A DNA stretch of 55,896 nt, taken from assembly GCA_035605155.1 (NCBI GenBank), contig DATNHC010000009.1, positions 1 to 55,896 on the forward strand. Direction: 5' to 3'. The notes under the pieces are model-generated. The model worked only from the letters and a program-made list of their open reading frames with translations, did not search any database and was not told the DNA's origin. This DNA comes from Solirubrobacterales bacterium (lineage in GTDB: Bacteria; Actinomycetota; Thermoleophilia; Solirubrobacterales; 70-9). A program made the translations under genes and the position numbers. Of the stretch, positions 2,448-30,020 are shown one piece after another (position 1 is the first letter of the stretch; each line of letters opens with the position of its first letter).

Positions 2448-3559
2448 CCGAGCTGCGCATCGACCAGCTCACCGGGCTGCCGACGATCCTGGCGCCGGGG
2501 CGGGCGGATCGTCCCGACAGCTTCGAGCTGCCGAAGAGCGAGCCGAAGGGATCCGGCAACTGCCCCTTCTGCGAGGGGCGCGAGGAGCGCACCCCACCAG
2601 AGGTCTTCGCGACTCGGCCCGGCGGCGGCGCGGCGGACACCCCCGGCTGGACGACGCGCGTCGTGCCGAACCTCTACCCCGCACTGACGCAGGAGGAGGA
2701 CGGCAAAGGCGCGGACACAGGCGACCGCCTCCGCGCGACGGCGCCCGCAGGCGCGACCAGCGGCGAGGCGGGCGCCTTCGCCAGCGGCGGCGATCCGCTG
2801 CTCGCCTCGCGCCGCTCCGGCGAACCTGACCTCTTCGCCTCGCGCCCGGCCCGCGGCGTCCACGAGGTGATCGTCAACTCGCCGGCCCATGCCACCACGA
2901 TGGCCGAGCTCGATGAGGCGCAGCTCGCCGCTGCCGTGGCGACCTGGCGGGCGCGGATGCGCGCCCACGCCGAGGCCGCCTACGTGCAGCTGATCGTCAA
3001 CGAGGGCGGCGGGGCCGGGGCGTCGCTCGAGCACTCGCACGCGCAGCTCTACGCGCTCGACTTCGTCCCGGCGGCCGTCGCACGCGAGCGCGAGCGGGTT
3101 GGGGCTTACGCCGAACGGACTGCGGGAGGTGGGCTGCTGGCTGACATCCTGGTCGAGGAGGTCCGTCGCCGCGAGCGTCTGGTCGCGATCGACGCGGAAG
3201 CGGCGCTGATCTGCCCCTGGGCCTCGCGCTCGCCGTTCGAGCTGCGGGTCGTGCCGCGGCACGCTGCAGCGAGCTTCGCCGAGAGTGAGGCCGGCACGGC
3301 GATGATCCGCACCGCCCTGCGCCTGCTCGCGACGCGCTTCGACGGCTCGCCCGAGCTGAACCTCTGGGTGCGTACCGCCCCTCGCGGCGCCGACCACTTC
3401 CACTGGCACGTCGACATCGCCCCCCGGCTCAGCGTCAAGGCGTCCTTTGAGTTCGCGACGGGGGTCGACATCAACACCTACCCACCCGAGCGCGCGGCGG
3501 CAGATCTGCGCGAGAGCCTCAGCGACGCGGACGTTTCCGTTTCTTCTTCACGCACCTGA
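2444..3559 (+). CDS. galT: Galactose-1-phosphate uridylyltransferase-like HIT-family nucleotidyltransferase
   Basis: Zinc/Cys motif [14 protein letters not shown]. Active-site-like HSHAQLYAL and [14 protein letters not shown] start overlaps the SPFH stop. The 3' end overlaps the convergent gene 3519..5600 by 41 nt. Confidence 0.75.
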
Positions 3560-7543: not shown

Positions 7544-8023
7544 CTAAGGAGCAAGCTCCCGCTTCAACCCCTGGGCCAGCGCGTAGACACAGCCACGGTA
7601 GCGCTCGATCGCCAGCGGCCCTGCGAACGTCCCCTGGTAGACCAGGGCGGCGAGCTGGCCGGCGGGGAAGTTGGCGCTCGGCTGTCTTTCGTGGCGGGCG
7701 ATCCCGGCAACCGCCTGGCGCTGCTCGGCGCTCAGCTCGCTCTCAGAGATATAGCGGCGGGCTACCTCGAGCGGGGTCTTGCCGGCGCAGTCGGCTTGCC
7801 CGGCGGCGATCGCCCCCGCGGAGCCGGGAATCGCGGTGTTGGGCGCAGGCGCGGGGAAGTTGCGGTAAAGCTCGCGCAAGACAGGCGAGGCGCCCTTTGG
7901 CGGCTTTGGCCCGCGGATCGGCGGGAAGGGGTCCCTGGCGGTGCTCTGGGTGTCCTCCTGCTCCCCGCAACCGGCGATCGCGAGCGCCAAGAGGGCGCAG
8001 AGGGCTGCGCAGCGGCGCCTCAT
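7544..8023 (-). CDS. Hypothetical lipoprotein (last gene of the large secreted-protein operon)
   Basis: Lipobox LLALAIAGCGE. The ATG overlaps the upstream stop as ATGA (8020..8023). No recognisable domain. Confidence 0.7.
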   Translation of the reverse strand: MRRRCAALCALLALAIAGCGEQEDTQSTARDPFPPIRGPKPPKGASPVLRELYRNFPAPAPNTAIPGSAGAIAAGQADCAGKTPLEVARRYISESELSAEQRQAVAGIARHERQPSANFPAGQLAALVYQGTFAGPLAIERYRGCVYALAQGLKRELAP

Positions 8024-8811
8024 CGCTTCGGCGTGCAGCTCCTTTGCACGTTGCCTGAGAGCCGCGTGCCGTCGGCGAAGAGGAAATCGCCGTGGGCATA
8101 GAGGTGGCCGGTGGGACAGCTCGCCAAGAGCAAGCTGCGCTTTTGGCCTTTATAGGTCCAGGTTTTTTTGATCCTCGCCCTGAAGGAGATCAAAGAGCCC
8201 TGGCCGCCGACGATCGTCGGGATCTTGACTTTAGTCTGGGTGCCGTATTTGCCCGCTGTGCGCTCGATCACCGCGCTGGTCACGAAGACCGTCGGGGCGG
8301 GGACGTAGGCATAGACGTGCATGATCAAGACCGGCTTGCCCGCCTTGGGGGCGCCGTTGAAGATCAAGAGCCTGCCGCCGGCTTTGAAGGGCGCCTGTTC
8401 GGGCAGGGCGATCTCCGCTTCGGCGCGCCCTGTGCCGATGAGGGCATCCCCGCAGACCCTTTCGGCCTCTGAGGTGAGCCTGCTCTGCAGCTTGGCGACC
8501 GTGCATCTCGCAAGGCCCTCGGTGTAGAGGTGGCCGTGGCGGTCGAATTTCAAGTGCAGGGTCGAGAGCGCCGGCACGTGGGAGCCGTCGGCGGTGCCGA
8601 TCGAGCCCGCCACCCGCAGGGCGATCGGCGCCGGCGCCTTGGCGGGCAGCGCCGTGGGGCTGATCGAGCCGTCGATCTCGATGATCAGGTTGCCGCTCCT
8701 CACGGTCTGCCCGAGCGCCGTGGCGGCGAGCGCGCCCAAGGCGAAGAGCGCCGCCAGCGCCAGGCGCGCACGGCGCGAGCGTGCCGGGCTCACTTGCCCC
8801 GCACCTTGCAC
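8020..8811 (-). CDS. Secreted single-module protein (paralog family with 8790..9590 and 46133..46897)
   Basis: Signal peptide (RLALAALFALGALAATALG). Shares GNL[IV]...C-x(n)-C-x(3)-IG-x-G...LL-x-FNG...C-terminal ..SC..K[RG] with the two paralogs. The track start (GTG 8811) overlaps the upstream gene by 22 nt. An in-frame GTG at 8793 would give a GTGA overlap instead. Confidence 0.8.
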   Translation of the reverse strand: MQGAGQVSPARSRRARLALAALFALGALAATALGQTVRSGNLIIEIDGSISPTALPAKAPAPIALRVAGSIGTADGSHVPALSTLHLKFDRHGHLYTEGLARCTVAKLQSRLTSEAERVCGDALIGTGRAEAEIALPEQAPFKAGGRLLIFNGAPKAGKPVLIMHVYAYVPAPTVFVTSAVIERTAGKYGTQTKVKIPTIVGGQGSLISFRARIKKTWTYKGQKRSLLLASCPTGHLYAHGDFLFADGTRLSGNVQRSCTPKR

Positions 8812-9590
8812 TCGCGCACCAGCTTGGCCGAGACGCTGCGCCCGTCGTCGAACTCAAAGCTCGCCCGCGCCAGGGGGAAGGGGGCTGAGGTGAAGCCGGC
8901 CGGGGCGGGGCAATCGGCTGCGGCGAAGCTCTTGCGCTTACCGGCGTGGGTGTAGCGGCGGGCGAGGGCCAGGTCGAAGGCCGAGATGTAGCCGTAGGAG
9001 GAGGCGATCGGCGGCAGGGTGCCGATCAGCGTCGTGCCGAAGGTCCCGGCGCTCTTTCTGAGCTCAAAGACGATCACGTAGGTGAGCGGCAGGGGCGCCT
9101 GGGTGGCGACCTGGGCGAGGATCGCGGGGCGGCCCTTGTAGCGGCCGTTGAAGGCGAGCAGCGGGCCGTTTGAGGCAAAGGCCCCCTGGCCGGGCAGGCT
9201 GATCCGCGAGGTGACGTTGCCGTGGCCGATCTGGGCATCGCCGCAGACGCGGCGCGCTTCGCTGGAGGAGATCGATTCGAGCCTTTGCAGCGGGCAGACG
9301 GCGAGGCCCTGGCTTTGCAGGCGCCCGTGGCGGTTGATCTCGAGCACGATCCGCTCCAGTTTGGGCGGCGTCGTGCGGTCGGTGGTCTTGATCTTGCCGC
9401 CCATGCGCACCGCGACCGGCGCGGCCTGCGTGCGCGGCAGGCGCTGGGGGGCGATCTCGCCGTGAAAGGAGACCACCAGGTTGCCCTTCTTGGCCAGCTC
9501 GGCGGTTGCGGGGCTCTGCGCGGCAAAGAGCAGCGCCGCGGCCAGGGCAAGGCCGCCCAGCAGGGTTCTGATCGTGCGGGGCGCCGCCAT
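8790..9590 (-). CDS. Secreted single-module protein (paralog of 8020..8811)
   Basis: Signal peptide (LLGGLALAAALLFAAQSPATA). Collinear similarity to its neighbour (GNLVVSFHGEIAP..., RVCGDAQIGHGN, LLAFNG, ends VRECKVRGK). Confidence 0.8.
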   Translation of the reverse strand: MAAPRTIRTLLGGLALAAALLFAAQSPATAELAKKGNLVVSFHGEIAPQRLPRTQAAPVAVRMGGKIKTTDRTTPPKLERIVLEINRHGRLQSQGLAVCPLQRLESISSSEARRVCGDAQIGHGNVTSRISLPGQGAFASNGPLLAFNGRYKGRPAILAQVATQAPLPLTYVIVFELRKSAGTFGTTLIGTLPPIASSYGYISAFDLALARRYTHAGKRKSFAAADCPAPAGFTSAPFPLARASFEFDDGRSVSAKLVRECKVRGK

Positions 9591-9598
9591 CGGTGCCC

Positions 9599-10219
9599 CT
9601 AGCGCACCAAGGGGTAGGCGCAGACGTACTCGGCGGGCGAGCCGACCGATATCTCAGAGATCGCCCCGGTGCCGCTGATCACCACGGTCGAGTAGCCGCC
9701 CCCGGTGGTGTTGCCGTAGTAGGCGTCGGTGAACTGGCGATCCGTGCCGGTGCCGGTGCCGAGGTTGATCGAGGCGCGCACCGAGTAAAGCGCCATCGGC
9801 GTGGGCAGGTAGCCGCCGCGCGCCGCGCACCCATCGGCCGCGGCGGCCAGGTTGGGCGCCGGTGGGTTCGATGCCGAATCGAAGCAGACGCCGCGCAGGA
9901 GGGTCGTCCCGGCCGGGCAGGCGGCGGCGTGGCCTGAAACCGTGTTGGCATTGCCCGCCCGGGTTGCCGCGGTGGCCTCGGGCACGGTGCCCAGGGCGGC
10001 GAGGTTGATGTCGGCGCCGCTCAGCGAGCCGTTTGCGACCTTCGATCCGTTGACCGCGTTTTTGGCGATCTTGCCGGTGGTCACCGCCTTTGCCCGCAGC
10101 TGGCGGGTGCCGACCGAGTTCTTATCCAGGGCGGCGTAGGCAGAGCCCGTGAGCGAGGCGATCAGGGCGATCGTCGCGATCACTGTGGCCGGTGAGGGCC
10201 GGCTGATGCCAAGCTTCAT
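9599..10219 (-). CDS. N-terminally anchored/secreted hypothetical protein with a Cys-containing C-terminal domain
   Basis: GGAGGA Shine-Dalgarno 6 nt upstream of the ATG. N-terminus VIATIALIASLTGSAYAALDKNSVGTRQLRAKAVTTGKIAKNAVNGSKV (short amphipathic repeats). C-terminal part has 4 Cys (AACPAGTTLLRGVCFD...DGCAARGGYLPT...EYVCAY). Confidence 0.75.
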   Translation of the reverse strand: MKLGISRPSPATVIATIALIASLTGSAYAALDKNSVGTRQLRAKAVTTGKIAKNAVNGSKVANGSLSGADINLAALGTVPEATAATRAGNANTVSGHAAACPAGTTLLRGVCFDSASNPPAPNLAAAADGCAARGGYLPTPMALYSVRASINLGTGTGTDRQFTDAYYGNTTGGGYSTVVISGTGAISEISVGSPAEYVCAYPLVR

Positions 10220-10237
10220 CTTGTTCCTCCGAGTCTC

Positions 10238-12943
10238 TTAGCGGCGCGCGCGCCGGTTGTCAGTGCCCTGGCGTTTGCCGCAGGCGGCCTTGATCGCGAC
10301 CTTCTGGGTGCGGGCCTTGCCGTTTTGGCCTGTGAACTCGACCAGCGCCTGGGGCGCCTTGCCCGCGCAAAGGCTCTTGGTGTTGACCAGGTAGCCCTGC
10401 GCGCCGCCGAGCAGGTCGAGGCGGAAATGGCCGACCGGGGCGTCGGGGATCACCGGCACGGTGGTCTTCAGGTGGCCCCTTTTGACCGAGGCCGAGCGGG
10501 CCTCGGGCATGATCGTCACCTGGCCGCCGAGGATGAAGATCAGGCGGGGCAGGCGGCCGTAGCCTGAGACCGCGTAGGCGGGGCCCGCCAGGGGCTGATC
10601 GAGGAGGGGCGTATCGACCCGCGCGCCGCCGATCGGCTGGCGCCCCGCGCAGCGTTTGGCGGCGAGCTCGGCCTTGGAGCAGATGTTGCCGAGGTGGCCC
10701 TGGTCGATCGCGAAGTCCTTGGGCAGGGTGACCGAGAGCGAGCGGATGTTGGCGTCGGCGGGGCGGGTGTAGAGGTCTACTCGCAGGGCGGGGTTCTTGG
10801 AGCGCTTGGTCTGCTTCTTGCCACCCAGCTGGGTGATCGCCATCCTTGGCCGGAAGCCGAGCGTTGCGCAGTTGACGACGTTAAAGAGCGAGCTGAAGGC
10901 GGCCACCGTGCCCTGATCGCCGATCCCCTGGCTTTTCACCGCGAGCGCCTCACAGTTGGTCGGGTTGAGGGTGAAGCCCGGGCGGGTCAGGTTGACCTCG
11001 ATCGAGCGCAGGCGGATCGGCACGCCGCCGACGATCGCCGGAACGGTGTCAGAGAGCGCGGTGACCTGGGCGGTGGCCGGATCGACGTTGACGGCGACCC
11101 TAACGACGATCGTGCCGTAGTCATAGGGGCCGGCCAGGGCCGGGGTGACCGCGACCAGGGAGAGCGGCGCGCCCTTGAAGGGCCCGGCGAAATACATCTT
11201 GCCCTGGGCGTGGAAGGGGTGGCTGCCGGGACCGGCGGCGACGTTGGTAGTGCCGATCAGGCTCTGGGCGGGACAGCTCGGCGCGGCCTGCTCGGCGAGG
11301 CCCGGCTTTTGGGCGGCGGCGAGGATCGCCGCCTCAGGACAGTAGGCCAGGCCGCGCAGCGAGCCGGTGAAGCCCGGCGGCATGGTGAAGCCCAGGTCAC
11401 CGATGAACTGGTCGCCGTCGTCGCGATCGAGCTTCAGGTGAAAGTCAGAGAAGGCGCCGGCCAGCGGGTTTGAGGTGCCGGCCGCAAGGCGCGGTGAGAA
11501 GGGGCGGGTGGTGCCCGGGCAGGAGGCGCCGCCGGGACCGGAGGAAAGCTCGAAGAACTGCTCAGAGCGCTGGTCTGCCAAGACCACGTTCCAGGGGAAG
11601 AAGTGGGCGTCGACCCGGTAGACCGAGCAGTGGGTGGGGGTGGCGACGAGGCCGCGGTCAGAGGCGAAGAGGTGCAGGTCGAAGGTCTCAAAGGAGACCT
11701 GGGGCAGGTCCTCGATCAGGGCGGTGATGCGGCCTGTGGTGGGATCGGGGTGGAAGGTGCCAAGCAGCTTGGCGTTGATGCCAAAGCCCGAGGCGAGCAA
11801 GAAGAAGCGGTACTGGTTGCCGGGCTTTGGCTGGCCCAGGTAGATCGAGCCGGTCAGCGGCCCGTCGAGGGAGGGCGAGTCGACCTCGAAGGTGCCGATC
11901 TTGGCGTTGTCAGGGCAGTTGTGGGGGGCCTCTGAGTCAAAGCCGGCCTCTGCGTCTAGGCAGGCCCTCTGCCCGTCGGCGGCGTCGGGGTTGATCGTCA
12001 GCCCCTCGGGCAGGGTCAGGGTGGCGCTTTTGATCGGCGAGGGGGTGGTCGATCTGCCAAGCGGCTGGGGGGCTGCCATTTCGATGTCAAAGCCCGCCGG
12101 GGCGTCGGTCTCCTTGCTGGTCGGGGTCGCCAGGAGCACCGGTTTGAAGGTCATCGCCGAACAGCCCGTGGAGGCCGGGTAGGCGGCCTCGGCGTGGGTC
12201 GGGTTGCCGGGGTCCTGGTAGGTGGTGAGGTCGAGGGAGACCGCCAGGGGCGCCCCGGTGCAGATCGAGGGGTTGTTGATCAGCGGGTTGACCGAGATCC
12301 CCGCCGAGGTCGGTTTTGTCAGGCAATCGGCGCCGGCTTTGCCCGGGCAGCCGACCGTGCCTTTGGGGAAGCGCTCTGGGTCGTGGATCTCATCGGCCGG
12401 AAAGCCCCAGTAGGTGAGCTCGGCTTTTGCCAAGGGCGTCAGCTGGGTCAGGTTGGCGACGGTGAAGCGCAGGCCGTAGTCGGTGGTGGTGCGCACCGCG
12501 ACCGGGATCGAGATCGGGATTTCCAATCCCGGCACGATGAAGCCAAAGAGCGCCGTCTGGGCGCCGGGCGGTTCGCGGTTATAGATCGGCGCGGTGCCGA
12601 GCAGGGCGTTGGGGTTTCCTTCGTGGTTGGCGCGAATCGTGATCAGGCCGACCTGAGAGGTGGAGGGGCAGCGCTTGAAGGCGAAGTCCTCAGAGGTGCA
12701 TTTGGGCACCGCGTTGGGGTTGCCGAAGAGGCCCTCGGGGGTGTTGACGGCGACGTCCTTGGCGGCCTCCGGGGCACCCGGCGAGTCGAGCGTAAAGGAC
12801 ATCTTGACGTCGGGGTGCCCGCCGGCCTGGGTGGTGGAGGTGGTTACGGTGAAGTCGTTGATCGCTTGGGAGGCCTGGGCGGGAGTCGCCAAGGCGCAGG
12901 CGGCCAGGCAGGCCGTAAGGGTGAGCAGGGCACGTGACCTCAT
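10238..12943 (-). CDS. Secreted ~900-aa multi-module protein, 'B-type' (paralog of 17391..20204), function unknown
   Basis: Signal peptide (LLTLTACLAACALATPAQA). Collinear with the paralog (QAGGHPDVKMSF; TLPEGLTINPDAADGQRAC; IGTFEVDSPSL..GSIYLGQPKPGNQYRFFL). Four recurrences of an LP-x-G...C...C(P)...[IV]G unit. ATG overlaps the upstream stop (ATGA 12940..12943). Confidence 0.85.
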   Translation of the reverse strand: MRSRALLTLTACLAACALATPAQASQAINDFTVTTSTTQAGGHPDVKMSFTLDSPGAPEAAKDVAVNTPEGLFGNPNAVPKCTSEDFAFKRCPSTSQVGLITIRANHEGNPNALLGTAPIYNREPPGAQTALFGFIVPGLEIPISIPVAVRTTTDYGLRFTVANLTQLTPLAKAELTYWGFPADEIHDPERFPKGTVGCPGKAGADCLTKPTSAGISVNPLINNPSICTGAPLAVSLDLTTYQDPGNPTHAEAAYPASTGCSAMTFKPVLLATPTSKETDAPAGFDIEMAAPQPLGRSTTPSPIKSATLTLPEGLTINPDAADGQRACLDAEAGFDSEAPHNCPDNAKIGTFEVDSPSLDGPLTGSIYLGQPKPGNQYRFFLLASGFGINAKLLGTFHPDPTTGRITALIEDLPQVSFETFDLHLFASDRGLVATPTHCSVYRVDAHFFPWNVVLADQRSEQFFELSSGPGGASCPGTTRPFSPRLAAGTSNPLAGAFSDFHLKLDRDDGDQFIGDLGFTMPPGFTGSLRGLAYCPEAAILAAAQKPGLAEQAAPSCPAQSLIGTTNVAAGPGSHPFHAQGKMYFAGPFKGAPLSLVAVTPALAGPYDYGTIVVRVAVNVDPATAQVTALSDTVPAIVGGVPIRLRSIEVNLTRPGFTLNPTNCEALAVKSQGIGDQGTVAAFSSLFNVVNCATLGFRPRMAITQLGGKKQTKRSKNPALRVDLYTRPADANIRSLSVTLPKDFAIDQGHLGNICSKAELAAKRCAGRQPIGGARVDTPLLDQPLAGPAYAVSGYGRLPRLIFILGGQVTIMPEARSASVKRGHLKTTVPVIPDAPVGHFRLDLLGGAQGYLVNTKSLCAGKAPQALVEFTGQNGKARTQKVAIKAACGKRQGTDNRRARR

Positions 12944-15900
12944 CGCCTGCCGCCTCTCTGCGTGCCCCGCTGTTTCTGTTTATTGGGCTTGCGCGCCACG
13001 CAGCGCCTCTTGCCGGCGCGGCGCACCGCCCGCTTGCCTTTCGGGCAGCGCTTGGGCTTTGCCGTCGGCTTTGCCTGGTTGGGGCTCGAGCCCAGGGTGC
13101 CGATCGCCGCCGGCGGCGCGGCCTGGGTGCCGGGCCCGTGGCACTCGTCGGCCGCCGCGCAGGGGGGCGGTGGGGGGATGTGGAAGAAGCCGCCACCCTC
13201 GCGGGCGTCATAGAGCTTCATCAGGGTGCCGTTGCCATCCCCCTCAACCAGCGTCTCGCGGGTGAAGAAAAAGGCGTCGGTGCCGTCGGCTGTGACCGTG
13301 AGCAGGCCCGAGTCGAAGGGGTCCTGGCCGGTGGAGATCAGCTCGACCTTGCCCTCTTTCCACTCATAGGCGTCTTGCTTTGCGTTGGCATCGCGCAGGA
13401 CCAGGGGCTCGGCCGTGTTGAAGAAGACCCGCCCGTCATCGCTCAAGCCGAGGCCCGCCTTTGGCAGCGAGGCGTGGCCCTGGGGCTCGGCGCCGGTGGC
13501 GCTGCAGGAGGCGCAGGAGATCTGCCCGCCGGATGCCTCATAGCGGAAGACCTGGCGCATATCGGCCGTCTCGAAGCCGCTCCCAGTCAGATCGAGCGAG
13601 GAGGGGAAGGCGGCGTAGGCGCTTGTGGGGGTGACCTGGAAGTCTGCCGTGTGGCGAGTGTCGGGCTCGGCGACGGAGTCGATCACCAGCGGGTTGTCAT
13701 AGGCGGCATCAAGCGGCGCCTCTGGCGGGCCGAAGAGCGCCACCTGGCCGTCTGCCGTGTCTGAGATCGCCAGGCGCCCGGCGTTGGCGGCGAGGCCGAC
13801 CGAGTCGCTCAGCACCCCTGCGCCGAACGCGGGGCCGACCTGGGCGCCGCTCGGGTCGTACTCGATCACCTGGCCCTGGCGGTCGACGTATATGTGGTCG
13901 TCGGTGGGGTCGACGGCGAGGCCGTAGGAGGGGGCGCTCTCCAGCACTTTGACGAAGGCGCCGCTGGAGTCGTAGATACGGGTTTCGGTGCCGTTGGTGA
14001 CGTAGGTGGTGCCGGCGGAGTCCACGGCGACCGAGTAGGCGACGCCAGGCACGGTGAAGGAGGTGGGGGCGACGGGTTCGGCGGGTTCGGCGGTGTTATA
14101 GACCTGGATCGTCGAGTCGCCGCCGAAGATGCCGAAAAGCGGCGAGGCGGCGACGTAGAGGTGGCCGTTTGCCGGGTTGACGGCCACGCCAACGGGGTGG
14201 AGGCCGCCGAATTCGCCGATCGTGATTTTCGCCTCATAGGCGCCAGTGGAGGAGAAGCGCTTGACCGCGTTGTTGCCGAAGTCGGGCACGTAGAGGTCGC
14301 GATAGTTGGGCGAAGCGGGGTAGTTGTCGACCGCGACCTGGGTCGGCAGGCCGACGGGGAAGCCGAGGATGGAGCTGTCGCCGAACTCCAGGAAAACGGA
14401 ACCCGAGGAGGCGCCATCCTCTTTGCTCTCCGTGCCGAAGGAGCTCACCGCTTTGCCGTCTTTGTCGAACTTCTGCACGTAGGCGCCGGGACTGGATAGC
14501 GTGTTGGCGTTGTCGAGCACGTAGATCGAGCCGTCTGCGGCGTCGATCGCAACCCCCTCGGGTTTGCCGAAGCTGCCGAAGGAGAGCGTGTGGTTGTGGG
14601 TGAGCTGGCCCAGCGGCGTGGAGGCGCTCGACTCAAGGGTGGCGAGGAGCTGCGGCGCCTGGCCCGGGGCGGAGCGGAAGAGGTTGGGGGCGCCCTCTGT
14701 GCCCTGGCCGTCGAGTTTCTCCGGGCTGAGGAAGTGGACCGTGCCATCCGCTGCCACCCCACCGCCACCGCCCACGGCGACCACTGAGCAGTCCTGGGCC
14801 CCGCCCGGCAGCGCGTTCCAGTCCTCGATGTTGAAGCTGTTGGCGGCCGGGTCGCAGGCGTCGGTGTCGCCGGCGCCGCCCATGCCGAGCGAGACGCGGC
14901 GAAGCGTGGCCGTGCTCGTCTCGAAGCGGAAGAGGTCGGCTGAGGTGTCGGTGTCCTGATCTGCCGCGGTGGCGAGCGGGTCGGGGGTGGTGAAGTAGAG
15001 CTGGGAGCCGTCAGCGGACATACCGGCGTAGTGGGCGCCGATCGTGGTGGCGGGTGTCAGCTCAAGCGAGTTGGGCGAGCCTGCCTGGTGCAGGTAGAGG
15101 TGGTGCAGCGGGTTGCCGGCGGCGTCCTGGCCGACCTCGACGCCGATCACGACGCGAGATCCGTCCTCGGAGACGTCGAGCGCTACGACTTCCTGCCCGG
15201 CTTTGATCGTCGTGCCGTCGGGCAGGGTGGAGGCGACCTCGGTCGTGTTGGCGATGAGGTCGCGCGAGTAGATCGTCAGGTTGCCGTCCTCGGGGTTGCC
15301 GGCCGGCTCGAACTGCTGCTCTGAGGCAAAGAGCAGGTGAGAGCCGTCGGCGGAGAGCTGCTCTTTGACCGCGCCGGGGACGTTCTCGGGCATCGGCACG
15401 GGTATCGAGCCCGCCATGCCCTGGACCAGCTCTCCCTCCGGGGTGCGCAGCGGGATGCCGGTCGAGCCGTCGGCAAAGCAGGGGTTGCAGATCTCAGGCC
15501 CGGCGAAGGCGAATGAGGAGAGCGAGGCATCGGCGCCGCCCAGGGTCGAGGAGAAGGGCGGTGAGACGCTGGGGCCCTCGGGAGCGTCGGCGGGGATGCC
15601 GACGTAGGTGGTCTCCCAGCGCTGGTTCTCAGCATCGCGCACGGCCAGGTAGGGGTCGGGGCCGCGGTTGGTCGGGTTGCCCGTGCCCGGGATGCCGCCG
15701 TCTTTGACCGAGTAGAGCGCTCTGCCGGGGGCCTCGGGGTAGCCGCCGAAGGGCAGCTCGCCGGGGACCAGGTCAGAGGTGACGTTATAGCCGCCCTGGT
15801 CTGAGGCAGAGACGAGCTCATAGGCGCGGCAGTCGAGCAGGAAGCCGGCGCCGGTCTGCTGGCGGGCGAGGTTGTTTTCACAGGAGGGATCGAATTTCTG

Positions 15901-17391
15901 CTCGGGGTAGGTGTGGAAGCTGCGGTCGGCGCCGTAGGCGGGGCCTTCGGAGTTGGTGGCGACCAGGCGGTAGAAGTAGGTGGTGTCGGGTTGCAGGCCG
16001 GCGATGTGGACAGCTGCGGGCACCGGGTAGAGGGCGGCGCCGACATCGTCTGCGTCGGTGCTCGTCTCACACGGGTTGGCCGAGCAGGGGGCGCTGCCGT
16101 ACTGCACCTGCACCGTGGTGTCGGCGAGGTTGGCGGTCACGGGGGCTTTGACGACGGCGCTCGAGAGGGTGATCTCCCCCACTTTCTGGGTGCCCACAAC
16201 GGGCGGCTCTGGCGCCGGGACGTCGAAGACATGGACCTGGCCGGCGACTTGGTCGGTCAGGTAGAGCTTGTGGGTCGGGGAGATGGCGAGGCCGCCCCAG
16301 GCGGGGCGTCCTCCGCTGAATGACTGAAGCGGCGGCGAGAGCTGATCGGTGCAGTCGACCTGCTGGCCACCGGGGTGGAACTCGGTGATGGTCGCGCCGC
16401 CGCCAAGCTCCTCGCAGCCGCGTTTGTAGTTGCGGGCGGCCAGGGGGAACTCGGTCTGCGGATCGACGGCGATCAGTTCCCAGGTGCTGTTCGAAACGGA
16501 TCCATGGCCGCCGTAGGTTTGCTCGGCCCTGACTTCGGTCCCGGTGAGGCTGAAGTCGCCCGCGGCGAAGCGTATCGGCGGCCCTTCAAAGTCGATGACG
16601 TAGAGGTCGCCGGCAGAGTTGACCGCGACGTCTCCGGGGATTCTCATGTCGTCGGCAATCTGGCCGACAAAGCTCGCCGCCGAGTCGAATTTCTGCACCC
16701 GCGGGTTGGGAACCGCTTTGAGATCGCCGACGTAGACGAAGCCCTCGCCGTCGACGGCCAGGCCGCCGCCGAAGGGCCAGCCACCGAACTGACCCGGCTC
16801 GCTGGGCACGCCGGGGGTGGGTGGGGCGGTGCTGAAGTCTTCGGGGACGCCCGAGACGTTGCCCGCCTTGCAGGTGTGACCGGCGGTGCAGACGTGCCCG
16901 CCGGTGTCGAGGTCGACGTTCTTGCCCCAGGTGAGGACGAACTGGCCTGTGGCGGTGAAGCGCTGGATGCGGTTGTTGGCGGTGTCCTGCACGTAGACCG
17001 AGCCGGCGGCGGGGCCGTCTGAGTTGTCGACCGCGATGCTGCCCGGGCTCGAGAACTGCCCGGCCTCACCGCCCCCCGCTCCCGCCTGGCAGGTGTGTTC
17101 GGAGGCGGCGGTGCAGACGTCGCCGTTAGTGGTGGCATCGACGCTCTTGCCCCAGGTGCGGATGAAGTCGCCGTCGGCGTCGAACTGGACGATGCGGTTG
17201 TTGCCCGAGTCGGCGACGTAGACGTCGCCGGTGGCGTGGTTGACGGCGACGCCGGTGGGGTTGTCGAGCTGCCCGGCGCCTTGGCCTTTGGCGGCGAAGC
17301 TGAAGTCGAAGGCCAGCTCTGCCTGGGCGGGGGCGGCGGTGAGCGCCAGGGCGGCGATCGTGGTGAGAATCGCTGGAATCGCCTTGCGCAT
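12940..17391 (-). CDS. Giant secreted NHL-repeat / FN3-like / TolB(PD40)-like propeller protein, 'A-type', with a PCAAADECHG + C-x14-C-V polybasic C-terminus
   Basis: Signal peptide (ILTTIAALALTAAPAQA). NHL blades (NRIVQFDADGDFIRTWG, NRIQRFTATGQFVLTWG, each with a vC..x..C[KQ]AG insert). One FN3-like repeat (..LQPDTTYFYRLVATNSEGPAYG). PD40-like DGS[HRQ]..F repeats. Further NHL blades. Tail: PPPPPCAAADECHG...KRCPKGKRAVRRAGKRRCVARKPNKQKQRGTQRGGRR. Confidence 0.9.
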   Translation of the reverse strand: MRKAIPAILTTIAALALTAAPAQAELAFDFSFAAKGQGAGQLDNPTGVAVNHATGDVYVADSGNNRIVQFDADGDFIRTWGKSVDATTNGDVCTAASEHTCQAGAGGGEAGQFSSPGSIAVDNSDGPAAGSVYVQDTANNRIQRFTATGQFVLTWGKNVDLDTGGHVCTAGHTCKAGNVSGVPEDFSTAPPTPGVPSEPGQFGGWPFGGGLAVDGEGFVYVGDLKAVPNPRVQKFDSAASFVGQIADDMRIPGDVAVNSAGDLYVIDFEGPPIRFAAGDFSLTGTEVRAEQTYGGHGSVSNSTWELIAVDPQTEFPLAARNYKRGCEELGGGATITEFHPGGQQVDCTDQLSPPLQSFSGGRPAWGGLAISPTHKLYLTDQVAGQVHVFDVPAPEPPVVGTQKVGEITLSSAVVKAPVTANLADTTVQVQYGSAPCSANPCETSTDADDVGAALYPVPAAVHIAGLQPDTTYFYRLVATNSEGPAYGADRSFHTYPEQKFDPSCENNLARQQTGAGFLLDCRAYELVSASDQGGYNVTSDLVPGELPFGGYPEAPGRALYSVKDGGIPGTGNPTNRGPDPYLAVRDAENQRWETTYVGIPADAPEGPSVSPPFSSTLGGADASLSSFAFAGPEICNPCFADGSTGIPLRTPEGELVQGMAGSIPVPMPENVPGAVKEQLSADGSHLLFASEQQFEPAGNPEDGNLTIYSRDLIANTTEVASTLPDGTTIKAGQEVVALDVSEDGSRVVIGVEVGQDAAGNPLHHLYLHQAGSPNSLELTPATTIGAHYAGMSADGSQLYFTTPDPLATAADQDTDTSADLFRFETSTATLRRVSLGMGGAGDTDACDPAANSFNIEDWNALPGGAQDCSVVAVGGGGGVAADGTVHFLSPEKLDGQGTEGAPNLFRSAPGQAPQLLATLESSASTPLGQLTHNHTLSFGSFGKPEGVAIDAADGSIYVLDNANTLSSPGAYVQKFDKDGKAVSSFGTESKEDGASSGSVFLEFGDSSILGFPVGLPTQVAVDNYPASPNYRDLYVPDFGNNAVKRFSSTGAYEAKITIGEFGGLHPVGVAVNPANGHLYVAASPLFGIFGGDSTIQVYNTAEPAEPVAPTSFTVPGVAYSVAVDSAGTTYVTNGTETRIYDSSGAFVKVLESAPSYGLAVDPTDDHIYVDRQGQVIEYDPSGAQVGPAFGAGVLSDSVGLAANAGRLAISDTADGQVALFGPPEAPLDAAYDNPLVIDSVAEPDTRHTADFQVTPTSAYAAFPSSLDLTGSGFETADMRQVFRYEASGGQISCASCSATGAEPQGHASLPKAGLGLSDDGRVFFNTAEPLVLRDANAKQDAYEWKEGKVELISTGQDPFDSGLLTVTADGTDAFFFTRETLVEGDGNGTLMKLYDAREGGGFFHIPPPPPCAAADECHGPGTQAAPPAAIGTLGSSPNQAKPTAKPKRCPKGKRAVRRAGKRRCVARKPNKQKQRGTQRGGRR

Positions 17392-20204
17392 CAGCGTGCC
17401 CTCTTCTTCTTGCAGGCGGCCTGCAGCGGGACCTTGAGGTTGCGCTTGGCCCCGTTTTGCCCTTTGAAGCGCACGGTTGCCTTTGGCACCTTGCTCTTGC
17501 AGAGGTCGCGCGAGTTCTGCAGGAGGCCCTTGGCGCCGCCCTGCATCTGCAAGACGATCTGTGAGACCGGCACGTCGGGGATGAAGTCAAAGGTGTTGCG
17601 GATGCCGCCTTTGATCGAGTCGACGCGGCCGACCGCGGTGAAGTCGACCTGGCCGTGCAGGTCCATCACCAGGTCGGGCAGCTCGTTGCTGGAGGATCGT
17701 AGGTAGACCGGGCCCTGCAGCGGTTGATCGAGGATCGGCGTGGTAGCGGTGACCTTGCCGTAGATCGAGCCGGCCGGGCAGCTCTTGGCGGCGAACTGCA
17801 CCCTGGTGCAGATCGTCTTGATGTGGGCCTGGTCGAGGAACTCCGACCTTGGCAGGGCGACCGAGGCGAAGGAAAGGTTGGCGTCGCCTGGCCTGGCTTT
17901 GAGGACGGCGCGCAGGACTGGGTGATCGCCGCGCTTGGTGCCGCCCCTAAGGCGCAGGCTGAGCTTTGGCTCAAAGGGCAGGTTGGCGCAGTTGGCGAGC
18001 TGGAAGTGGGAGGTGCGGGTGGCTTTGGCGCCTTCTTCGCCGAAGAGCTCTGCATCGGAGGAGAGCGCTTTGCAGTTGGTCGGGTTGAGGGCGAACTTCG
18101 GCCGGTCGATGTCAACGCGCACCGAGCGCACCCGCAGCGGGATGCCGTCGATCTGAAGCGGCAGTGGGTCAGAGACCGTCTTCACCCGGGCGGTTACCGG
18201 ATCGACGTGGACGGCGACGCGGGTGGCGATGTTGCCGACGTCATAGGGGCCGGTGACCGCGGGGATCACGACCACGATCGAGAGCGGCGCCCCTTTATAG
18301 GGACCGGCGAGGTAGGCCTTGCCCGATTGGTAGAGGACACGGCTGCCGGCACCGGCGCCGCCGGTCACGCTGCCGATCTGGCTTGCCTGTGGGCAAACCG
18401 ATGAACTCAGCTCTGCGAGGCCCGAGTAGAGCGGGTTGCCGAGCTGGGCGATCGCCGCCTCTGGGCAGTAGGGGATGCCCTTGAGGATCCCCGAGAAGCC
18501 AGCCGGGGGAGAGACGTTGGCGGCGGCAAGGAACTGATCGCCGTCAGCTCGGGAGATCTCGACGATGAAGGGCGAGTGGGCGCCGCCGGTGTTCTTGGTC
18601 ACCCCTGCTTGGAAGGAGGGCGCGAAGGGCCGTTGCGCTCCGGGGCAGGGCGTGCCGTTAGGACCTGAGTCGATCGTGAAGAACTGGGTCGAGCTCTGCG
18701 TGGGCAGCTCTGAGGCCCAGGGGGTGAAGCTGGCTTTGATCGGGTAGGTGCCACAGCGGGTCGGGGTGGCAAGGGCGCCGCGCTCAGAGCCAAAGACGTG
18801 CATGTCGAATTCCTGGAAGGTGAACTGGGGCAGGTTCTCGAAGCTGACCGTCATCCCGTTGAGGGGATCGGGGCGAGCGGTGCCGGGCAGCTTGACGTGC
18901 AGGCTGAAGCCGTCGAAGACCAAGAAGACCCGGTAGCGGTTGCCGGGCAGCGGCTCGCCCAGGTACATCGAGCCTCGCAGCACTTCTGGAAGCGAGGATG
19001 AGGTGACCGCGAGGGAGCCGATCTTGGCGTGCTCGGGGCACTGGGCTTCCTCGCGCGTCCCGAAGCGAGCTTGTGCTGCGGTGCAGGCCACCTTGCCGTC
19101 GGCGGCGTTGGGGTTGATCGTGAAGCCCGGCGGCAGCTGCACGGTGGTCGCCTTGATCGCCGAGGGGGTGGGAACGGTGCCGCTCAGCGTCTGGGGCACC
19201 GTCAGGGTGGCATCGAGGCCCGAGGGCGAGTCTGCCTCGGTGGTCGTCGGCTTGGCCACCAGGCTCGGGTTGAAGGTCAGCTTGTCGCAGCCGGTCGTTG
19301 CCGGAAAGCTGGAACTGGCGAAATCCGTCTCACCGTCATAGGCGAGGGTTTCGACCGAGGAGTTGAGCTCCCCCGCGCAGTTGGTCGGGTTGGAGATGAA
19401 GGGGGTGAGGGGGGCGTTGGAGGGAGTCGGAGCCGGGACCATTTTCTCCAGGATGTTGGCGCAGTCGGGATAGGGGAACCTGCCCGCCAGGAGGGCCGGC
19501 AGCGCATCCTGGTCGCGGCAGAGGTACAACGGCCACCCGTCCCCTTCGGATTCACCCTCGAACCCCTCCGGGGGCATGCGCAGCGCATCGTGGGAGGGAT
19601 CGGCCGGCACTCCCCAGAAGATGAACTCGACTCGCCTGGGCGCGACCGGGAAGGCGCCGACGCGCCGCGGGATGCCGAGGGTCTTCGTCTCGAGGCCGTA
19701 GTCGCTCTCGGTGCGGGCGGTGAACGAAATGAAGACGGGCAGTGAGAGCGTGTTGGAGGGCACCGGGGCCGGGAAGGCGAGCAGCGCCGCCTGGCCCCCC
19801 TTCGGCACCATGTTGAAGAGCGGCATCACGGTGCAGCCGGGGCCTGGCTCGGCCCCGCGAATGGACAGGCAGACGAGCCCCACCTGGCTCTCGATTGGGC
19901 AATCGAGCAAGGAGAACTGCGCCAGGGTGCAGCGGGGGATGTCGCGCGGAGCGCCGAGCAGGCCGGGGGCGCTGTTGACCGTGATCTCTTTCGCTCCATC
20001 GCAGTCCCCGCAGGGCGACAGATCCTCGCCGAACAGGAAGGAGAAGTGCAGGTCGGGGTGGCCACCGGCCGCCTGGGTGTTGACGGAGGTCGCCCCGAAG
20101 GAGAGAATCGGCGTCTTCGCCTCTGCTCGCTCGCCGAGCTCTCCGCCGGACAAACCCAAAGCGAGGGCGAAGGCTGAAATGCCGAGTAGCAGGCGCGCCC
20201 TCAT
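17391..20204 (-). CDS. Secreted ~940-aa multi-module protein, 'B-type' (paralog of 10238..12943)
   Basis: I place the start at the internal ATG 20204 (MRARLLLGISAFALALGLSGG, a signal peptide), which forms an ATGA overlap with the upstream stop. The 70-aa N-terminal extension in the track overlaps the upstream gene and is Arg/Pro-rich. The stop overlaps the next ATG by 1 nt (17391). Confidence 0.85.
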   Translation of the reverse strand: MRARLLLGISAFALALGLSGGELGERAEAKTPILSFGATSVNTQAAGGHPDLHFSFLFGEDLSPCGDCDGAKEITVNSAPGLLGAPRDIPRCTLAQFSLLDCPIESQVGLVCLSIRGAEPGPGCTVMPLFNMVPKGGQAALLAFPAPVPSNTLSLPVFISFTARTESDYGLETKTLGIPRRVGAFPVAPRRVEFIFWGVPADPSHDALRMPPEGFEGESEGDGWPLYLCRDQDALPALLAGRFPYPDCANILEKMVPAPTPSNAPLTPFISNPTNCAGELNSSVETLAYDGETDFASSSFPATTGCDKLTFNPSLVAKPTTTEADSPSGLDATLTVPQTLSGTVPTPSAIKATTVQLPPGFTINPNAADGKVACTAAQARFGTREEAQCPEHAKIGSLAVTSSSLPEVLRGSMYLGEPLPGNRYRVFLVFDGFSLHVKLPGTARPDPLNGMTVSFENLPQFTFQEFDMHVFGSERGALATPTRCGTYPIKASFTPWASELPTQSSTQFFTIDSGPNGTPCPGAQRPFAPSFQAGVTKNTGGAHSPFIVEISRADGDQFLAAANVSPPAGFSGILKGIPYCPEAAIAQLGNPLYSGLAELSSSVCPQASQIGSVTGGAGAGSRVLYQSGKAYLAGPYKGAPLSIVVVIPAVTGPYDVGNIATRVAVHVDPVTARVKTVSDPLPLQIDGIPLRVRSVRVDIDRPKFALNPTNCKALSSDAELFGEEGAKATRTSHFQLANCANLPFEPKLSLRLRGGTKRGDHPVLRAVLKARPGDANLSFASVALPRSEFLDQAHIKTICTRVQFAAKSCPAGSIYGKVTATTPILDQPLQGPVYLRSSSNELPDLVMDLHGQVDFTAVGRVDSIKGGIRNTFDFIPDVPVSQIVLQMQGGAKGLLQNSRDLCKSKVPKATVRFKGQNGAKRNLKVPLQAACKKKRAR

Positions 20205-23200
20205 CGCCCTGCCCTCCTCCCGGAGCGGTCGCGCCCACGCTTCGCGCGCACGCAGCGCTTGCCCTTCTTCTCGGCCGCCTTGCGCGCACGCTTCGTGCAG
20301 CGCCCCCGCCGTGGTTGGCGTTTGCGGGGCTCTGCAAGGTTCCCGCCACGGCCGAGGGGCGCGCTGCTGGCCAGTCGCGGCGGGGCCGGCGCCGCTCCTC
20401 CCACCCCATGGCACTCATCGGCCGCCGCGCAGGGGGCCGGCACGGCCGCGCGCGGGAAGCCGCCGTTTACGCGTGCGTCATAGAACTTGAGGTTGGGACC
20501 GTTCTCGTCCTCGGGGACGAGGGTCTCGAAGGTGGCGAAGTAGACGTCGGTGCCGTTGCCGCTGATCCCGATCAGGCCCTCGGGCGACTCGCTGTCGGGG
20601 GCCGCGTCGCCGCTGCCGGGGGTGATCAGCTGCGGGCGGCCGTTGACGTACTCATAGACGTCGATCGCCTCGTTGGTGTCGGCGGGGACGACTCCGTCAG
20701 CAGTGAAAAAGAAGGTGCGCCCGTCGTCGGCGATATAGAGACCGTTGCGAGCCCCCATCGCATCGGCGCTCGGCGGCTCGCCGCTGGGGCGGCAGGAGGC
20801 GCAGATCAGCTCTTCAGCCTCGGCGTCGAACAGGTACATCGCCTCGAAGCCGCCGTTGTCGGCGCCGGTCAGCCGATCGTCTGAGAGGAAGGCCGCGTGA
20901 TCGCCAGAGGGCGTCACCTGCAGGCGGCTGGCGGGTTTGTCTTCTGAGAGCGCGGCGACGAACTGCACCGTCCCTTCCCGTGCCACATAGAGATTGCGGG
21001 CGCCGGGGATTCCCTCACCGGGAACGAGCTGCTCGGGGGAGTAGAAGTAGGCGGCGCCGCTCCCGGTCCCGAAGGGGTGGTCGGTCTCACGCCAGTCGGA
21101 TTTGCTCCCGGCCGTCTGGGGGACGACGATCCCGCACTTCGCCACCCACTCGGCGTTGCAGCCGTCGCGGTCGCCGGCGCTGCCGAGCTCTCCCTTGGAG
21201 AGGCGCGTGATCTGATCGCCCGCCTCGCTCCAGCGGTAGAGGTCGGTCGAGGTGTCGGTGTCATCGGCGGTGATCTGCTCATCGGAGGTGAAGAGGACCT
21301 GCGAGCCGTCGTCGGTCATGCCGACGAAGTCGACGACGTGGCCGGCCGATACGTCGTAGCTGACCGCGCCGTCGACGCGCATGTAGAGGTGGCCGGGGTA
21401 GAGGCCGAACTTGCAGTGCTTGGTCTGGAGCGTCAGACCGCAGTAGAAGGGGTGCTCGCCGCAGAGGGGCCGACCGCAAACCCCTGTCGCCAGCGAGGAC
21501 ATCAACAGGTGGCTGCCGTCTTCGGAGACCGCCGGCAGCTCCAGCCAGCCGTCGGTCAGAGGGCCCGGCTCGCGCGGTATGTCGCCGCCCGCCGGCGTCT
21601 TCGAGGCGATCGTCACCGCGCCCGTCCGCAGGTCGTTGTCATAGGCTGACCCCGTGCCCGACGTCAACCCTCCCGGTGCGAAGGCCAGGTTGGCCGAGGA
21701 GAAGAAGAAGTGGCTGAAGTCGCCTGCCGGGCGGAAGTCCCCGGCGAAGCCGCCGATCGAGATATCCTCCATCGCGCCGGGCACCTCGGCGGCGTTGGTC
21801 GGCAGCCTGCCGAGGCTGTTGCCCTCAGCGTCGAAGAGGTAGCCCGCCGCGGAGCCGAGCCTGGGCGCCGCCCACTGCACGAAGCGCGAGAGCCGCTCGT
21901 CGAACATCGTGCCCGTGGCCGCGGCGCCCCCACTGTCAGACCGGTAGGGCGGCCCCCAGGTGAAGATCGCCGTGGTGTCCGTCGTCGGCCCCAGGCCCAC
22001 GTAACGCGTGCGCCAGCCAGTGTCTCCGCGCGTCGCCACGTAGAGGTCCCCGTAGGTGCCGAAGGGGTCGCCGCTGCCCTGCAGCGAGCCTATGAAAACG
22101 GAGAAGGGGAAACGCGAGGGGCTGGTCGCCTTGGGCGGTACCGCACCGCCCGGTATCAGGACCGTCGAGCCAGCATTCCCCGGCGAGACCAGCTCATAGG
22201 CGCGGCAATCGGGCAGGGCGCCGGAGCCCGACTGCTGGCGCGCGGTGGCGTTGGGGCAGGGCTCGGGGTAGAAGTTGAAGGTCTGGTTGGCGCTCGTCGT
22301 GGTGCCGGCTTCGTTGGTGGCGACGACGCGGAAGTGGTGGACGACCGGGTCGAGGCCCTCGATGTGGGCCTCGACCGCGACCGCTCCGTGGGAGTCGCCG
22401 ATCGCCACCTCGGGCGTGCTTTGCCCGTAGGCGCGGGTCGTGCCGTACTCGAAGTGGTAGGAGGTCGCGGTGCCGAGCGGGTTGATCTGAGCCCTGAGGT
22501 CGGCCGAGCTGGCGGTCACGTTGACGGCGCTCTGCGAGTCGATCGTCGGCGGCGCGGCGAGCGTGGTGAAGCTCTGCACCGGACCGGTCGTGTTGGAGGT
22601 GTATGGCTTTACGATCCGTAGCCGCACTTCGTACTCGGTCTTCGGCGCCAGGCCGGCAACGGAGAGGTTGAAGGCAATGGGCGAGTCACCGGTGCCGATC
22701 GGCGCCGGGCGCCCGAAGGGCGCCCACTGCGACTCCGATGCCTTCTTGTATTCGGCCTGGTAGGTGGTGGCAGGGGGACTGGGATAGGGGGCAGCATCCG
22801 GGCCGTTGGGGTCGATCGTTCCCGTGAGCGTCGCCGCGCTGCGAGTTACGTCGCCGACCGGGTCGAGGGTCAGCTCCGGCGCCGGCCCCAGCTCGCCGAA
22901 GACGCTGACGCGGATTTCGGTGCGGTTTGATGGATCTTGGAGGGTGTATGGCTCGGCTTTGATCGGGTTGAGACTGAAGCCGACGATGTCGTCGGAGGAG
23001 TCGGGAGCCGGAACGTCGGTGCAGGGCAGGCTGGTCTCGAGGAGCGTCCCGCTCGGGTCGAACTCCTGGATACGGACCTCCCTGGGGGATGGAATGCCGT
23101 CCGGGCAATCGGAGAACCCGGCCGGATACCGCTTCGCCACGAAGACGTGGTCGTTGGCCGCGACCGCGACGTCGAAGGGGGCATCGGCGAATCCGCTGCC

Positions 23201-29690: not shown

Positions 29691-29757
29691 TTCTTCGTGA
29701 ATTTAGAGCGACGTGGGGTTGATTTGCGGAAGCGGGCACCTACGTTCGGCGACAGCG

Positions 29758-29849
29758 GAGGGTGAAGCCGCGAGGTCGGGGCGAACGGATGACACCCGTG
29801 AGTTCGGACTGCTGTCCGGATGGGGTTCGAGTCCCCCGCCCTCCGCCAA
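29758..29849 (+). ncRNA. tRNA-like gene, class II (long variable arm), 8/4 acceptor/T-stem geometry, anticodon GAC, discriminator G, CCA encoded (allo-tRNA-like / tRNA-Sec-shaped)
   Basis: Hand fold: acceptor GGAGGGTG/CGCCCTCC (8 bp, one G-U). D-arm GCCGCG-AGGT-CGGGGC (6 bp with one G-G mismatch, 4-nt loop). Anticodon arm ACGG-ATGACAC-CCGT (U33, anticodon GAC, A37). 7-bp variable-arm hairpin TTCGGAC-TGCT-GTCCGGA. T-arm GGGG-TTCGAGT-CCCC. Then G-CCA. Not a canonical isoacceptor, because Val tRNAs are class I. Confidence 0.5.
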
Positions 29850-30020
29850 TGAATTGCTGTGCGCGTGAGAGTCGGAGCGAGGTGCAAATGTCATGCGGCC
29901 TGCGGGGTAGCACCTGCTCAACGAACCGCTCTCACGCCGCAGCGAACTCGGTATTTTGGCTGGTAGCCTTCTTCACCTCACGGGTGTCAGACGATTGCTG
30001 CAGTAGCGGCTTTACCAACG

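Follow-up and report, generated by a model that had tools for sequence, protein, structure and literature searches.

The DNA analysed here, hereafter the window, is a 55,896-nucleotide (nt) stretch of a Solirubrobacterales genome (contig DATNHC010000009.1, positions 1 to 55,896; 62-72% G+C), and our subject is the C-terminal tail shared by large, signal-peptide-bearing proteins encoded on its minus strand. Three minus-strand open reading frames (ORFs), at 3519-5600 (693 amino acids, aa), 12940-17391 (1483 aa) and 20201-25573 (1790 aa), encode the products that we call P1, P2 and P3. An earlier note, made from the sequence letters, had claimed that all three end in a C-x14-C-V pattern followed by a polybasic run, and their translations match the tails it quoted. 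P2 ends ..KPKR-C-PKGKRAVRRAGKRR-C-VARKPNKQKQRGTQRGGRR and P3 ends ..RRGR-C-TKRARKAAEKKGKR-C-VRAKRGRDRSGRRAGR, each immediately before the stop codon, and in all three proteins the cysteines are 14 residues apart, with GK(x)R before the second one and Val after it. Among window ORFs that are 80 aa or longer and have nine or more K/R in their last 25 residues, P1-P3 are the sole real genes with a tail cysteine pair, the remaining pattern matches being short off-frame Arg-rich ORFs.

Each tail can be divided, from the translation of the minus strand, into a hairpin unit and a polybasic tract. The unit of P1 spans Cys668 to Cys683 and the following V (x14; 3549..3599), and its tract is KKKRKRPRR (3522..3548), with no Gly cap and no coupled gene downstream; three Fn3-like domains and then a Pro-rich linker precede the hairpin, and P1 is without the CHG motif described below. 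In P2 the unit is C1449-PKGKRAVRRAGKRR-C1464-V1465 (12997..13047), an x14 variant delimited also with AlphaFold2 and MAFFT, followed by the tract ARKPNKQKQRGTQRGGRR (12943..12996), which is predicted to be disordered with a predicted local distance difference test score (pLDDT) below 50. The unit of P3, C1759-TKRARKAAEKKGKR-C1774-V (20249..20299), is a degenerate x14 form in which the G3 and F4 positions are missing, and it leads into the tract RAKRGRDRSGRRAGR (20204..20248). Direct reading of the sequences finds Sec-type signal peptides on each of P1-P3 and on each of the B-type and 260-aa proteins described below. The only P1-P3 domains recognised by Pfam and NCBIfam are NHL and Fn3-like/PhoD_N-like; these libraries gave no match on the P1-P3 tails and none in the B proteins introduced next.

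P2 and P3 are the two A proteins of a minus-strand cassette (7544..25573) that reads A (P3), B2, A (P2), B1, fam3 (9599-10219), fam1 (8790-9590), fam1 (8020-8811) and fam8 (7544-8023). The general order, A-B-A-B-fam3-fam1-fam1 and then TetR, fam4, fam5 or fam8, recurs in many of the 81 Solirubrobacterales loci that we compared, and the Solirubrobacterales genomes concerned hold several cassette copies. Shorter endings of one Cys plus basic residues, reported previously for the B-type and 260-aa proteins, are likewise present in the translations: B1 closes with CGKRQGTDNRRARR (10241..10282; the protein ends ..AACGKRQGTDNRRARR), B2 with CKKKRAR (17394..17414; the protein ends ..AACKKKRAR), and three 260-aa window proteins with ..RSCTPKR, ..RECKVRGK and ..RSCTPKG, all on the minus strand in the case of B1 and B2.

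Similar tails occur in hundreds of proteins from metagenome-assembled genomes (MAGs) of Solirubrobacterales, an order abundant in soils, and the tail is thus not limited to three paralogues. A query with the last 257 aa of P2 retrieved 93 proteins, most of them with a related tail end, and a scan of one genome per prokaryotic species in GTDB gave 427 confirmed relatives, the best 80 of which come nearly all from uncultured Solirubrobacterales/Thermoleophilia soil MAGs, often with at least five copies per contig. About 60 giant proteins with a basic Cys-x-Cys tail end are found in the 81 loci. When a profile of the tail only (38 positions, alignment A3) was run on 1.84 billion cluster representatives at E<=0.001, 148 representatives matched; the unit lies 5-48 residues from the C-terminus in about 120 of these 148 and is a tandem double in 16. 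Hairpin residues and Cys pairing are kept at ~45-60% overall identity, and this 38-position profile offers a simple sequence handle for finding cargo. A search of the literature on this lineage together with sorting signals or NHL repeats returned no description of the tail or the cassette. One A-type relative (locus L016, CAZKYJ010000317.1) was met on a contig of 6 kb in a MAG that bears the label Verrucomicrobiales; since it is 53% identical to the Solirubrobacterales family, the contig was probably misbinned.

The idea of a shared C-terminal unit also held, as the tail stands behind several different last domains. In the P1 type the last domain is Fn3-like with a Pro-rich linker (at least 45 representatives), and in the A type (P2, P3) it is a PD40 propeller followed by CxxxxxC[HR]G, this motif being replaced by CEGEACQ, CESPEGCGR or CTGEDCK in variants. 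In P0168 it consists of divergent InlB B-repeats (Flg_new_2). Moreover, the tail is carried by the small, unassigned proteins P0241 and P0102, the latter with two hairpins and outside any cassette. P1 and P2 have NHL and Fn3-like parts in common, and the tails of the two form an alignment apart from these. We rejected an origin from a prophage or tailocin in which the tail would bind DNA: among IMG/VR viral contigs there was no A-type match and a single B-type match, at a contig end.

The 14-residue spacing, taken at first as a property of the motif, turned out to be a minority variant. In relatives' tails downstream of the CHG motif the two cysteines are 10 residues apart in 117 cases, 14 in 10 and ~53-54 in nine, while 56 tails have no Cys, and C-x10-C-V is therefore the norm. 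The consensus of this main form is C-[KR]-K-G-[FK]-V-[KR]-[RK]-[HRN]-G-[KR]-C-V-[KR]-[KR], with G3 in 80/104, V5 in 83/104, G9 in 92/104 and V after the second Cys in 92/104. A MAFFT alignment shows that x14 differs from x10 by two 2-residue insertions placed symmetrically about the x-G turn, as expected of a beta-hairpin extended by two pairs. An AlphaFold2 model of the P2 C-terminus built with 26 homologues predicts strands at 227-232 and 235-240, joined by A233-G234 and lying between Cys223 and Cys238; pLDDT is ~90 over the hairpin block and ~50 over its flanks (the CHG region and the distal tail), and the preceding domain is modelled as a TolB/S9-peptidase-like propeller. In seven A-type homologues (P0004, P0048, P0064, P0074, P0078, P0085, P0089) the hairpin is replaced by a basic segment of ~53-54 residues between two Cys (C-x53/54-C), which, judging by its sequence, is probably a helical hairpin.

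The tail cysteines come in pairs. Downstream of CxxxxxC[HRQ]G, 211 non-redundant tails hold no Cys in 56 cases, one in three, two in 148, three in none and four in four; the single-Cys tails are all truncated or frameshifted, and the four-Cys tails are tandem hairpins. Similarly, the Cys totals of the nine mature cassette proteins in the window are all even (10, 20, 28, 18, 22, 4, 4, 4, 4). Gain and loss in pairs is what would be expected of disulfide partners in exported proteins, and the suggestion of a disulfide-closed cationic hairpin agrees with this strict pairing, the symmetric length variation and the confident AlphaFold2 hairpin; we infer that the disulfide forms. The hairpin is also dispensable. 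In 28/37 cassettes the first A protein has a polybasic tail free of Cys, and in 34/37 the second A protein has the hairpin, the window being atypical in having x14 hairpins on both A genes. The polybasic tract is thus the common denominator.

A second element proposed as part of the tag, PCAAADECHG, lies upstream of the hairpin in P2 (13135..13164, minus strand) and P3 (20405..20434, minus strand) and is missing from P1. The near-identity of its coding DNA was confirmed, with 24/25 bases identical between the 25-mers at 13140-13164 and 20410-20434 where 0 matches are expected by chance, although the coordinates given earlier were off by 1-2 bases. Outside this 25-mer the P2 and P3 tail DNA is only ~63% identical, which indicates that the tail is not a recent copy and that the similarity is held at the protein level. 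Across relatives the consensus is C[AKR][AS][SA]DEC[HR]G[PA]. Membership in the tag did not hold up, as P1-type carriers do without the motif and variants put CEGEACQ, CESPEGCGR and similar in its place; PCAAADECHG is a piece of the A-type C-terminal domain, outside the tail module. It opens a strongly conserved linear motif on the minus strand, P-C-x-x-x-D-E-C-H-G-P-G-[ST]..PP.IG[TS]..G.GG[NQ] (13050-13164 and 20300-20434), in a region that AlphaFold2 predicts to be disordered. Its G-x-G-G-N portion is retained even by Cys-free tails, and the linear motif could be a docking or cleavage site. A haem (CXXCH-like) or metal site at CxxxxxCHG was rejected, as variants swap the His for Q, R, K or G and keep the Cys pair.

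The distal tract has a median length of 20 residues (range 9-45) and a net charge of +3 to +21. It consists of K (24%), R (23%), H (16%) and G (11.5%), with 1.3% D+E, ~63% being K/R/H, and the free interchange of K, R and H means that it conserves composition, not sequence. No hydrophobic stretch occurs in 235 non-redundant tails, in which at most five of any 10 residues are L/I/V/F/M/W/A (median one). This charge sits on acidic bodies in P1 (body -34, tail +18), P2 (-105, +19) and P3 (-107, +17; pI, the isoelectric point, 4.3); the window B bodies are near neutral with tails of +5, and the fam1 proteins have a pI of ~10. Over the 81 loci, A proteins have a net body charge of -6.2 per 100 aa and a net +11 on their last 25 residues; the corresponding pairs of values are -2.35 and +8 for B proteins, +6.8 and +3 for fam1, +8.1 and +2 for fam4, and -1.0 and 0 for unrelated genes. 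Tail charge climbs as body acidity grows.

We favour, with a probability of roughly 0.5, the reading that the tail is a modular polycationic C-terminal extension that retains exported A (and B) proteins on a polyanion by charge. It would have two parts, an optional 12- or 16-residue beta-hairpin with one disulfide, in one or two copies, and an intrinsically disordered tract of 9-45 residues with ~63% K/R/H. Through multivalent charge contacts the very acidic giant A proteins would be held outside the membrane on the polyanion, the Ig-like B proteins would be held likewise via their shorter tails, and the hairpin would contribute a basic knob, rigid and resistant to proteases. An anionic cell-envelope polymer would be the first candidate for the polyanion, the acidic A bodies and extracellular DNA being others. 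Charge-based binding is preferred over recognition by an enzyme because composition and not sequence is conserved, length varies, the hairpin is optional and duplicable, no hydrophobic or enzyme-linked element is present, and the charges of tail and body are complementary.

The same charges could instead serve inside a complex. The tails, together with the basic fam1 and fam4, might act as glue that binds the acidic A bodies and assembles a surface structure or matrix of A, B and small proteins. Bodies of -105 and -107 beside fam1 and fam4 proteins of pI ~10 agree with such an arrangement, as does the conserved gene order of the cassette; the translational coupling of A to B (114/122, see below) suggests co-assembly, and the placement of the hairpin (on the second A in 34/37, missing from the first in 28/37) suggests distinct partner sites. 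However, a distal tract conserved in composition only, with a 5-fold variation in length, would be unusual for a specific protein-protein interface, and both P1-type proteins and the small P0102 bear the tail outside A-B cassettes. We consider this assembly role unlikely, if the first to turn to should retention on the envelope fail.

Part of the tail end has its origin in the DNA. The last six tail residues contain 29% Gly compared with 4.7%, and Lys is depleted there. In 114/122 A-type genes the stop is overlapped by the start codon of the next gene, by 4 nt (ATGA/GTGA) in 67, by 8 nt (xAT-GGx-stop) in 42 and by 1 nt in five, and Shine-Dalgarno-like 4-mers lie 4-15 nt upstream of the start in 56/68 and 38/42 cases (94/110 combined). 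The next gene's ATG lies within all 29 [HN]G endings, at -8, and 26/30 G.[RKGQ] endings have the 4-nt ATGA overlap. In the window the A/B stop-start overlaps are at 20201-20204, 17389-17393 and 12940-12943; over these and the 81 loci the overlap types include TGATG. The 3' end of the P3 gene is GGGAGGAGGGCAGGGCGATGA and that of the P2 gene AGAGGCGGCAGGCGATGA: the last codons of P2, AGA GGC GGC AGG CGA TGA, include a Shine-Dalgarno-like sequence as well as the ATG at which the next gene starts, and those of P3, GGG AGG AGG GCA GGG CGA TGA, include a Shine-Dalgarno sequence as well as the ATG at which the B gene starts. The terminal 3-6 residues (RGGRR, RRAGR) are dual-coding: the next gene's Shine-Dalgarno sequence and start codon overlap their codons and shape them. 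A terminal recognition motif (..RHG, ..RNG, ..GG[NSR]R, ..NRRAGR) was accordingly discarded, as the downstream gene's signals explain it, and motif searches should beware of this apparent C-terminal 'cap', a dual-coding footprint of translational coupling. The mechanical ORF of B2 (17391-20414, minus strand) begins at 20414 and includes an upstream 70-codon extension that overlaps the P3 tail in another frame; the ATG at 20204 (MRARLLLGISAF.., a signal peptide) is almost certainly where B2 really starts.

Could the whole tail be such a by-product, the ribosome-binding region of the next gene, or else neutral baggage of related paralogues? The constraint on the last 3-6 codons and the relatedness of most carriers point that way, yet the polybasic tract covers 27-135 nt, far longer than a ribosome-binding site, and hairpin residues and Cys pairing are conserved at ~45-60% identity in hundreds of proteins. 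P1, which is uncoupled, ends in KRPRR without a Gly cap, and since both P1 and the final B of cassettes carry polybasic tracts although no gene is coupled downstream of them, the tract itself is not a nucleotide artefact. This explanation is largely refuted, and we give it hardly any weight.

The tail resembles LPXTG and the PEP-, GlyGly-, PGF- and MYXO-CTERM signals in standing at the extreme C-terminus of Sec-exported surface proteins, in its basic end and in being lineage-restricted. Signals of both kinds pair with a dedicated enzyme and are tripartite, a signature motif being followed by a hydrophobic helix and then by a short cluster of basic residues (PMC5817068 for LPXTG). In contrast, the tails described here have no signature motif, no hydrophobic segment and no linked enzyme, and their basic part is 10-45 residues long. 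A positive C-terminal end is common to both, at +17 to +19 in the window tails, whose tract is much longer than that of sortase signals. No LPXTG-like pentapeptide is present in the last 60 residues of P1-P3, and the NCBIfam CTERM and sorting-signal models matched neither the whole proteins at E<=0.01 nor 47 isolated tails at E<=10. The dissimilarity to LPXTG and PEP-CTERM-type signals that had been pointed out therefore stands, there being neither a hydrophobic helix nor an NCBIfam or Pfam model.

The tail could nonetheless be a signal for sorting or processing that an unlinked enzyme reads, through cleavage at the conserved G-x-G-G-N linker, or through coupling of a Lys to peptidoglycan by an L,D-transpeptidase, as in Braun's lipoprotein, whose C-terminal Lys is attached in this way. 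The position of the unit at the extreme C-terminus of ~120 carriers, the sequence-specific hairpin core, the conserved linear motif in a predicted disordered region upstream and a lineage restriction like that of other signal/enzyme pairs would all suit such a signal, as would the YkuD L,D-transpeptidase and Rce1-like protease genes 3-5 kb from the window cassette. These two genes, however, are outside the families that recur in other loci, and no protease, sortase or transpeptidase is recurrent within 10 kb of the cassettes in 81 neighbourhoods. The hairpin is dispensable, K, R and H interchange freely, some tails are almost Lys-free after the hairpin, and the terminal motifs (..RHG, ..GGxR) are by-products of the Shine-Dalgarno/start-codon overlap. 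We judge this signal decidedly improbable. The same doubt, to the same degree, attaches to the broader proposal that hairpin and polybasic tail form a new sortase-independent surface-sorting or attachment signal of Thermoleophilia, with unlinked machinery and more than 1,000 A/B proteins as its cargo. Of the two roles originally offered for the tail, binding of an anionic wall polymer is the one we would retain as an inference; a processing signal has no positive evidence, no processing or attachment enzyme being conserved beside the cassettes.

The polybasic end might also act during export, by slowing or arresting the last Sec step, so that the protein would stay at the membrane for a while and fold, form its disulfide or assemble there. 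Positive charge is indeed concentrated at the very C-terminus of these Sec substrates, the analogy being with sortase signals, whose tail is charged too (PMC5817068). Against this, no hydrophobic stop-transfer segment is present, the paired tail cysteines argue for arrival in an oxidising compartment, and the scaling of tail charge with body acidity would be left unexplained. Such a pause is very improbable.

For retention by charge, the nearest functional analogue is the mycobacterial HBHA, an actinobacterial surface protein that works by the charge principle proposed here for the tail; more broadly, polybasic retention tails with sulfated glycans or teichoic acids as ligands belong to the same class. 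Its Lys-rich, low-complexity C-terminal region binds a polyanion by charge (PMC3293801, PMC8467707). The tails studied here have a comparable low-complexity K/R-rich C-terminus, with 63% K/R/H, 1.3% D/E and predicted disorder. The ligand of HBHA is a host glycan, and the likeness is one of working principle. HBHA has Lys/Ala/Pro repeats and is not known to have a cysteine hairpin or a signal peptide. On this reading the tail would be a variant, specific to its lineage, of surface retention by charge, a principle already known.

The hairpin on its own has other counterparts. The terminal hairpin of EGF, TIL and EB domains and the ENF insect cytokines have the identical register C-x2-G-x-V-x3-G-x-C-V; CPSGRVRRLGICV of PDB 5w54 (Manduca stress response peptide-2) matches it with an E value of 0.22, and the end of the TIL_2 model is matched weakly by 13/47 tails (best E 0.005, under the cut-off and in the terminal hairpin only), while the full P1-P3 proteins match no TIL, EB or EGF-like Pfam domain. 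The tails correspond to the last hairpin of such domains only, with two Cys instead of 6-10 and scores under every curated threshold, and unlike the ENF cytokines, which are free peptides of ~23-25 aa with an N-terminal ENF motif and one disulfide hairpin, they are tethered and lack that motif. The register common to TIL, EB and ENF is probably a convergent structural motif, not a sign of membership. A second functional analogue is seen in thanatin, tachyplesin, arenicin and bactenecin, which are short, highly basic, disulfide-closed beta-hairpins that bind anionic envelope components. These peptides are free, secreted and amphipathic, whereas the tail hairpin, basic nearly throughout, forms part of proteins as long as 1,800 residues and leads into a long basic tract that is disordered. 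Unrelated bacterial proteins (P0098, P0207, P0103, P0099, P0175, P0197) contain 4-15 tandem basic C-P-x-G-x5-G-x-C-V hairpins; in P0098 and P0207 the arrays are combined with DUF11 and the peptidoglycan-binding domain PG_binding_1, and others match EB/TIL models. We count the arrays beside PG_binding_1 in favour of charge retention.

Several points weigh against retention of the proteins on a polyanion by their tails. A tract of +10 to +20 is unfavourable for Sec translocation, and export of the tail is thus an assumption of this reading. Anionic wall polymers are not known to have been described in Solirubrobacterales. The support of AlphaFold2 for the hairpin consists of predicted strands and pLDDT, and part of the tail end is accounted for at the nucleotide level. 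Finally, nearly all carriers fall within one broad NHL/Fn3 protein group, so the modularity of the tag rests on domain shuffling inside a superfamily and on the outliers P0102 and P0241. The tail is the sole candidate device for keeping these giant unannotated cassette proteins on the cell. Should charge retention prove true, high-GC Gram-positives would gain a tag for display or retention that is both compact and transplantable, and work on what the cassette does would have a place to start.

Homologues of the B family number at least 1,376. Among the best 120 none has a Pfam domain, and every name given there reads 'hypothetical protein'; the B-type homologues listed end in ..GQNG..x..C and a K/R/H-rich tail. 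A structure prediction based on database homologues (AlphaFold2, mean pLDDT 86) gives a chain of Ig-like beta-sandwiches whose last 10 residues are disordered and basic, and the predicted fold resembles the PrgB Ig-like domains, integrin alpha legs and complement MG domains. A B-type profile found no match among PDB sequences. The 260-aa proteins show weak relatedness to an internal B module. Within P3 (~23290-25160, minus strand; residues ~140-215, 335-425 and 600-760) there are three copies of a ~75-aa repeat with the pattern GGTFTL.FG..TT..L.Y.AS...VQ.AL..L....G.V.VTGGPG....Y.I.F.G..GG.D., which has no Pfam match.

A cluster of envelope genes adjoins the cassette at 28686-34438, comprising the YkuD L,D-transpeptidase (28686-29690), the Rce1-like CPBP intramembrane protease (30051-31049), a class A penicillin-binding protein (31191-33350) and a GT87 glycosyltransferase (33365-34438); YkuD and the Rce1-like gene lie 3-5 kb away, and the cluster does not recur beside cassettes in other loci. 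In a second mini-cluster, at 46133-48538, a fam1 paralogue whose last residues are RSCTPKG (46133-46897) is joined by a TetR regulator (47047-47976) and by a fam5 protein (47813-48538) for which Pfam gave no significant match; the families of this mini-cluster flank cassettes in other loci. Further along, at 50677-54645 on the minus strand, the replicative helicase DnaB (1322 aa) is split by two inteins with LAGLIDADG homing-endonuclease domains.

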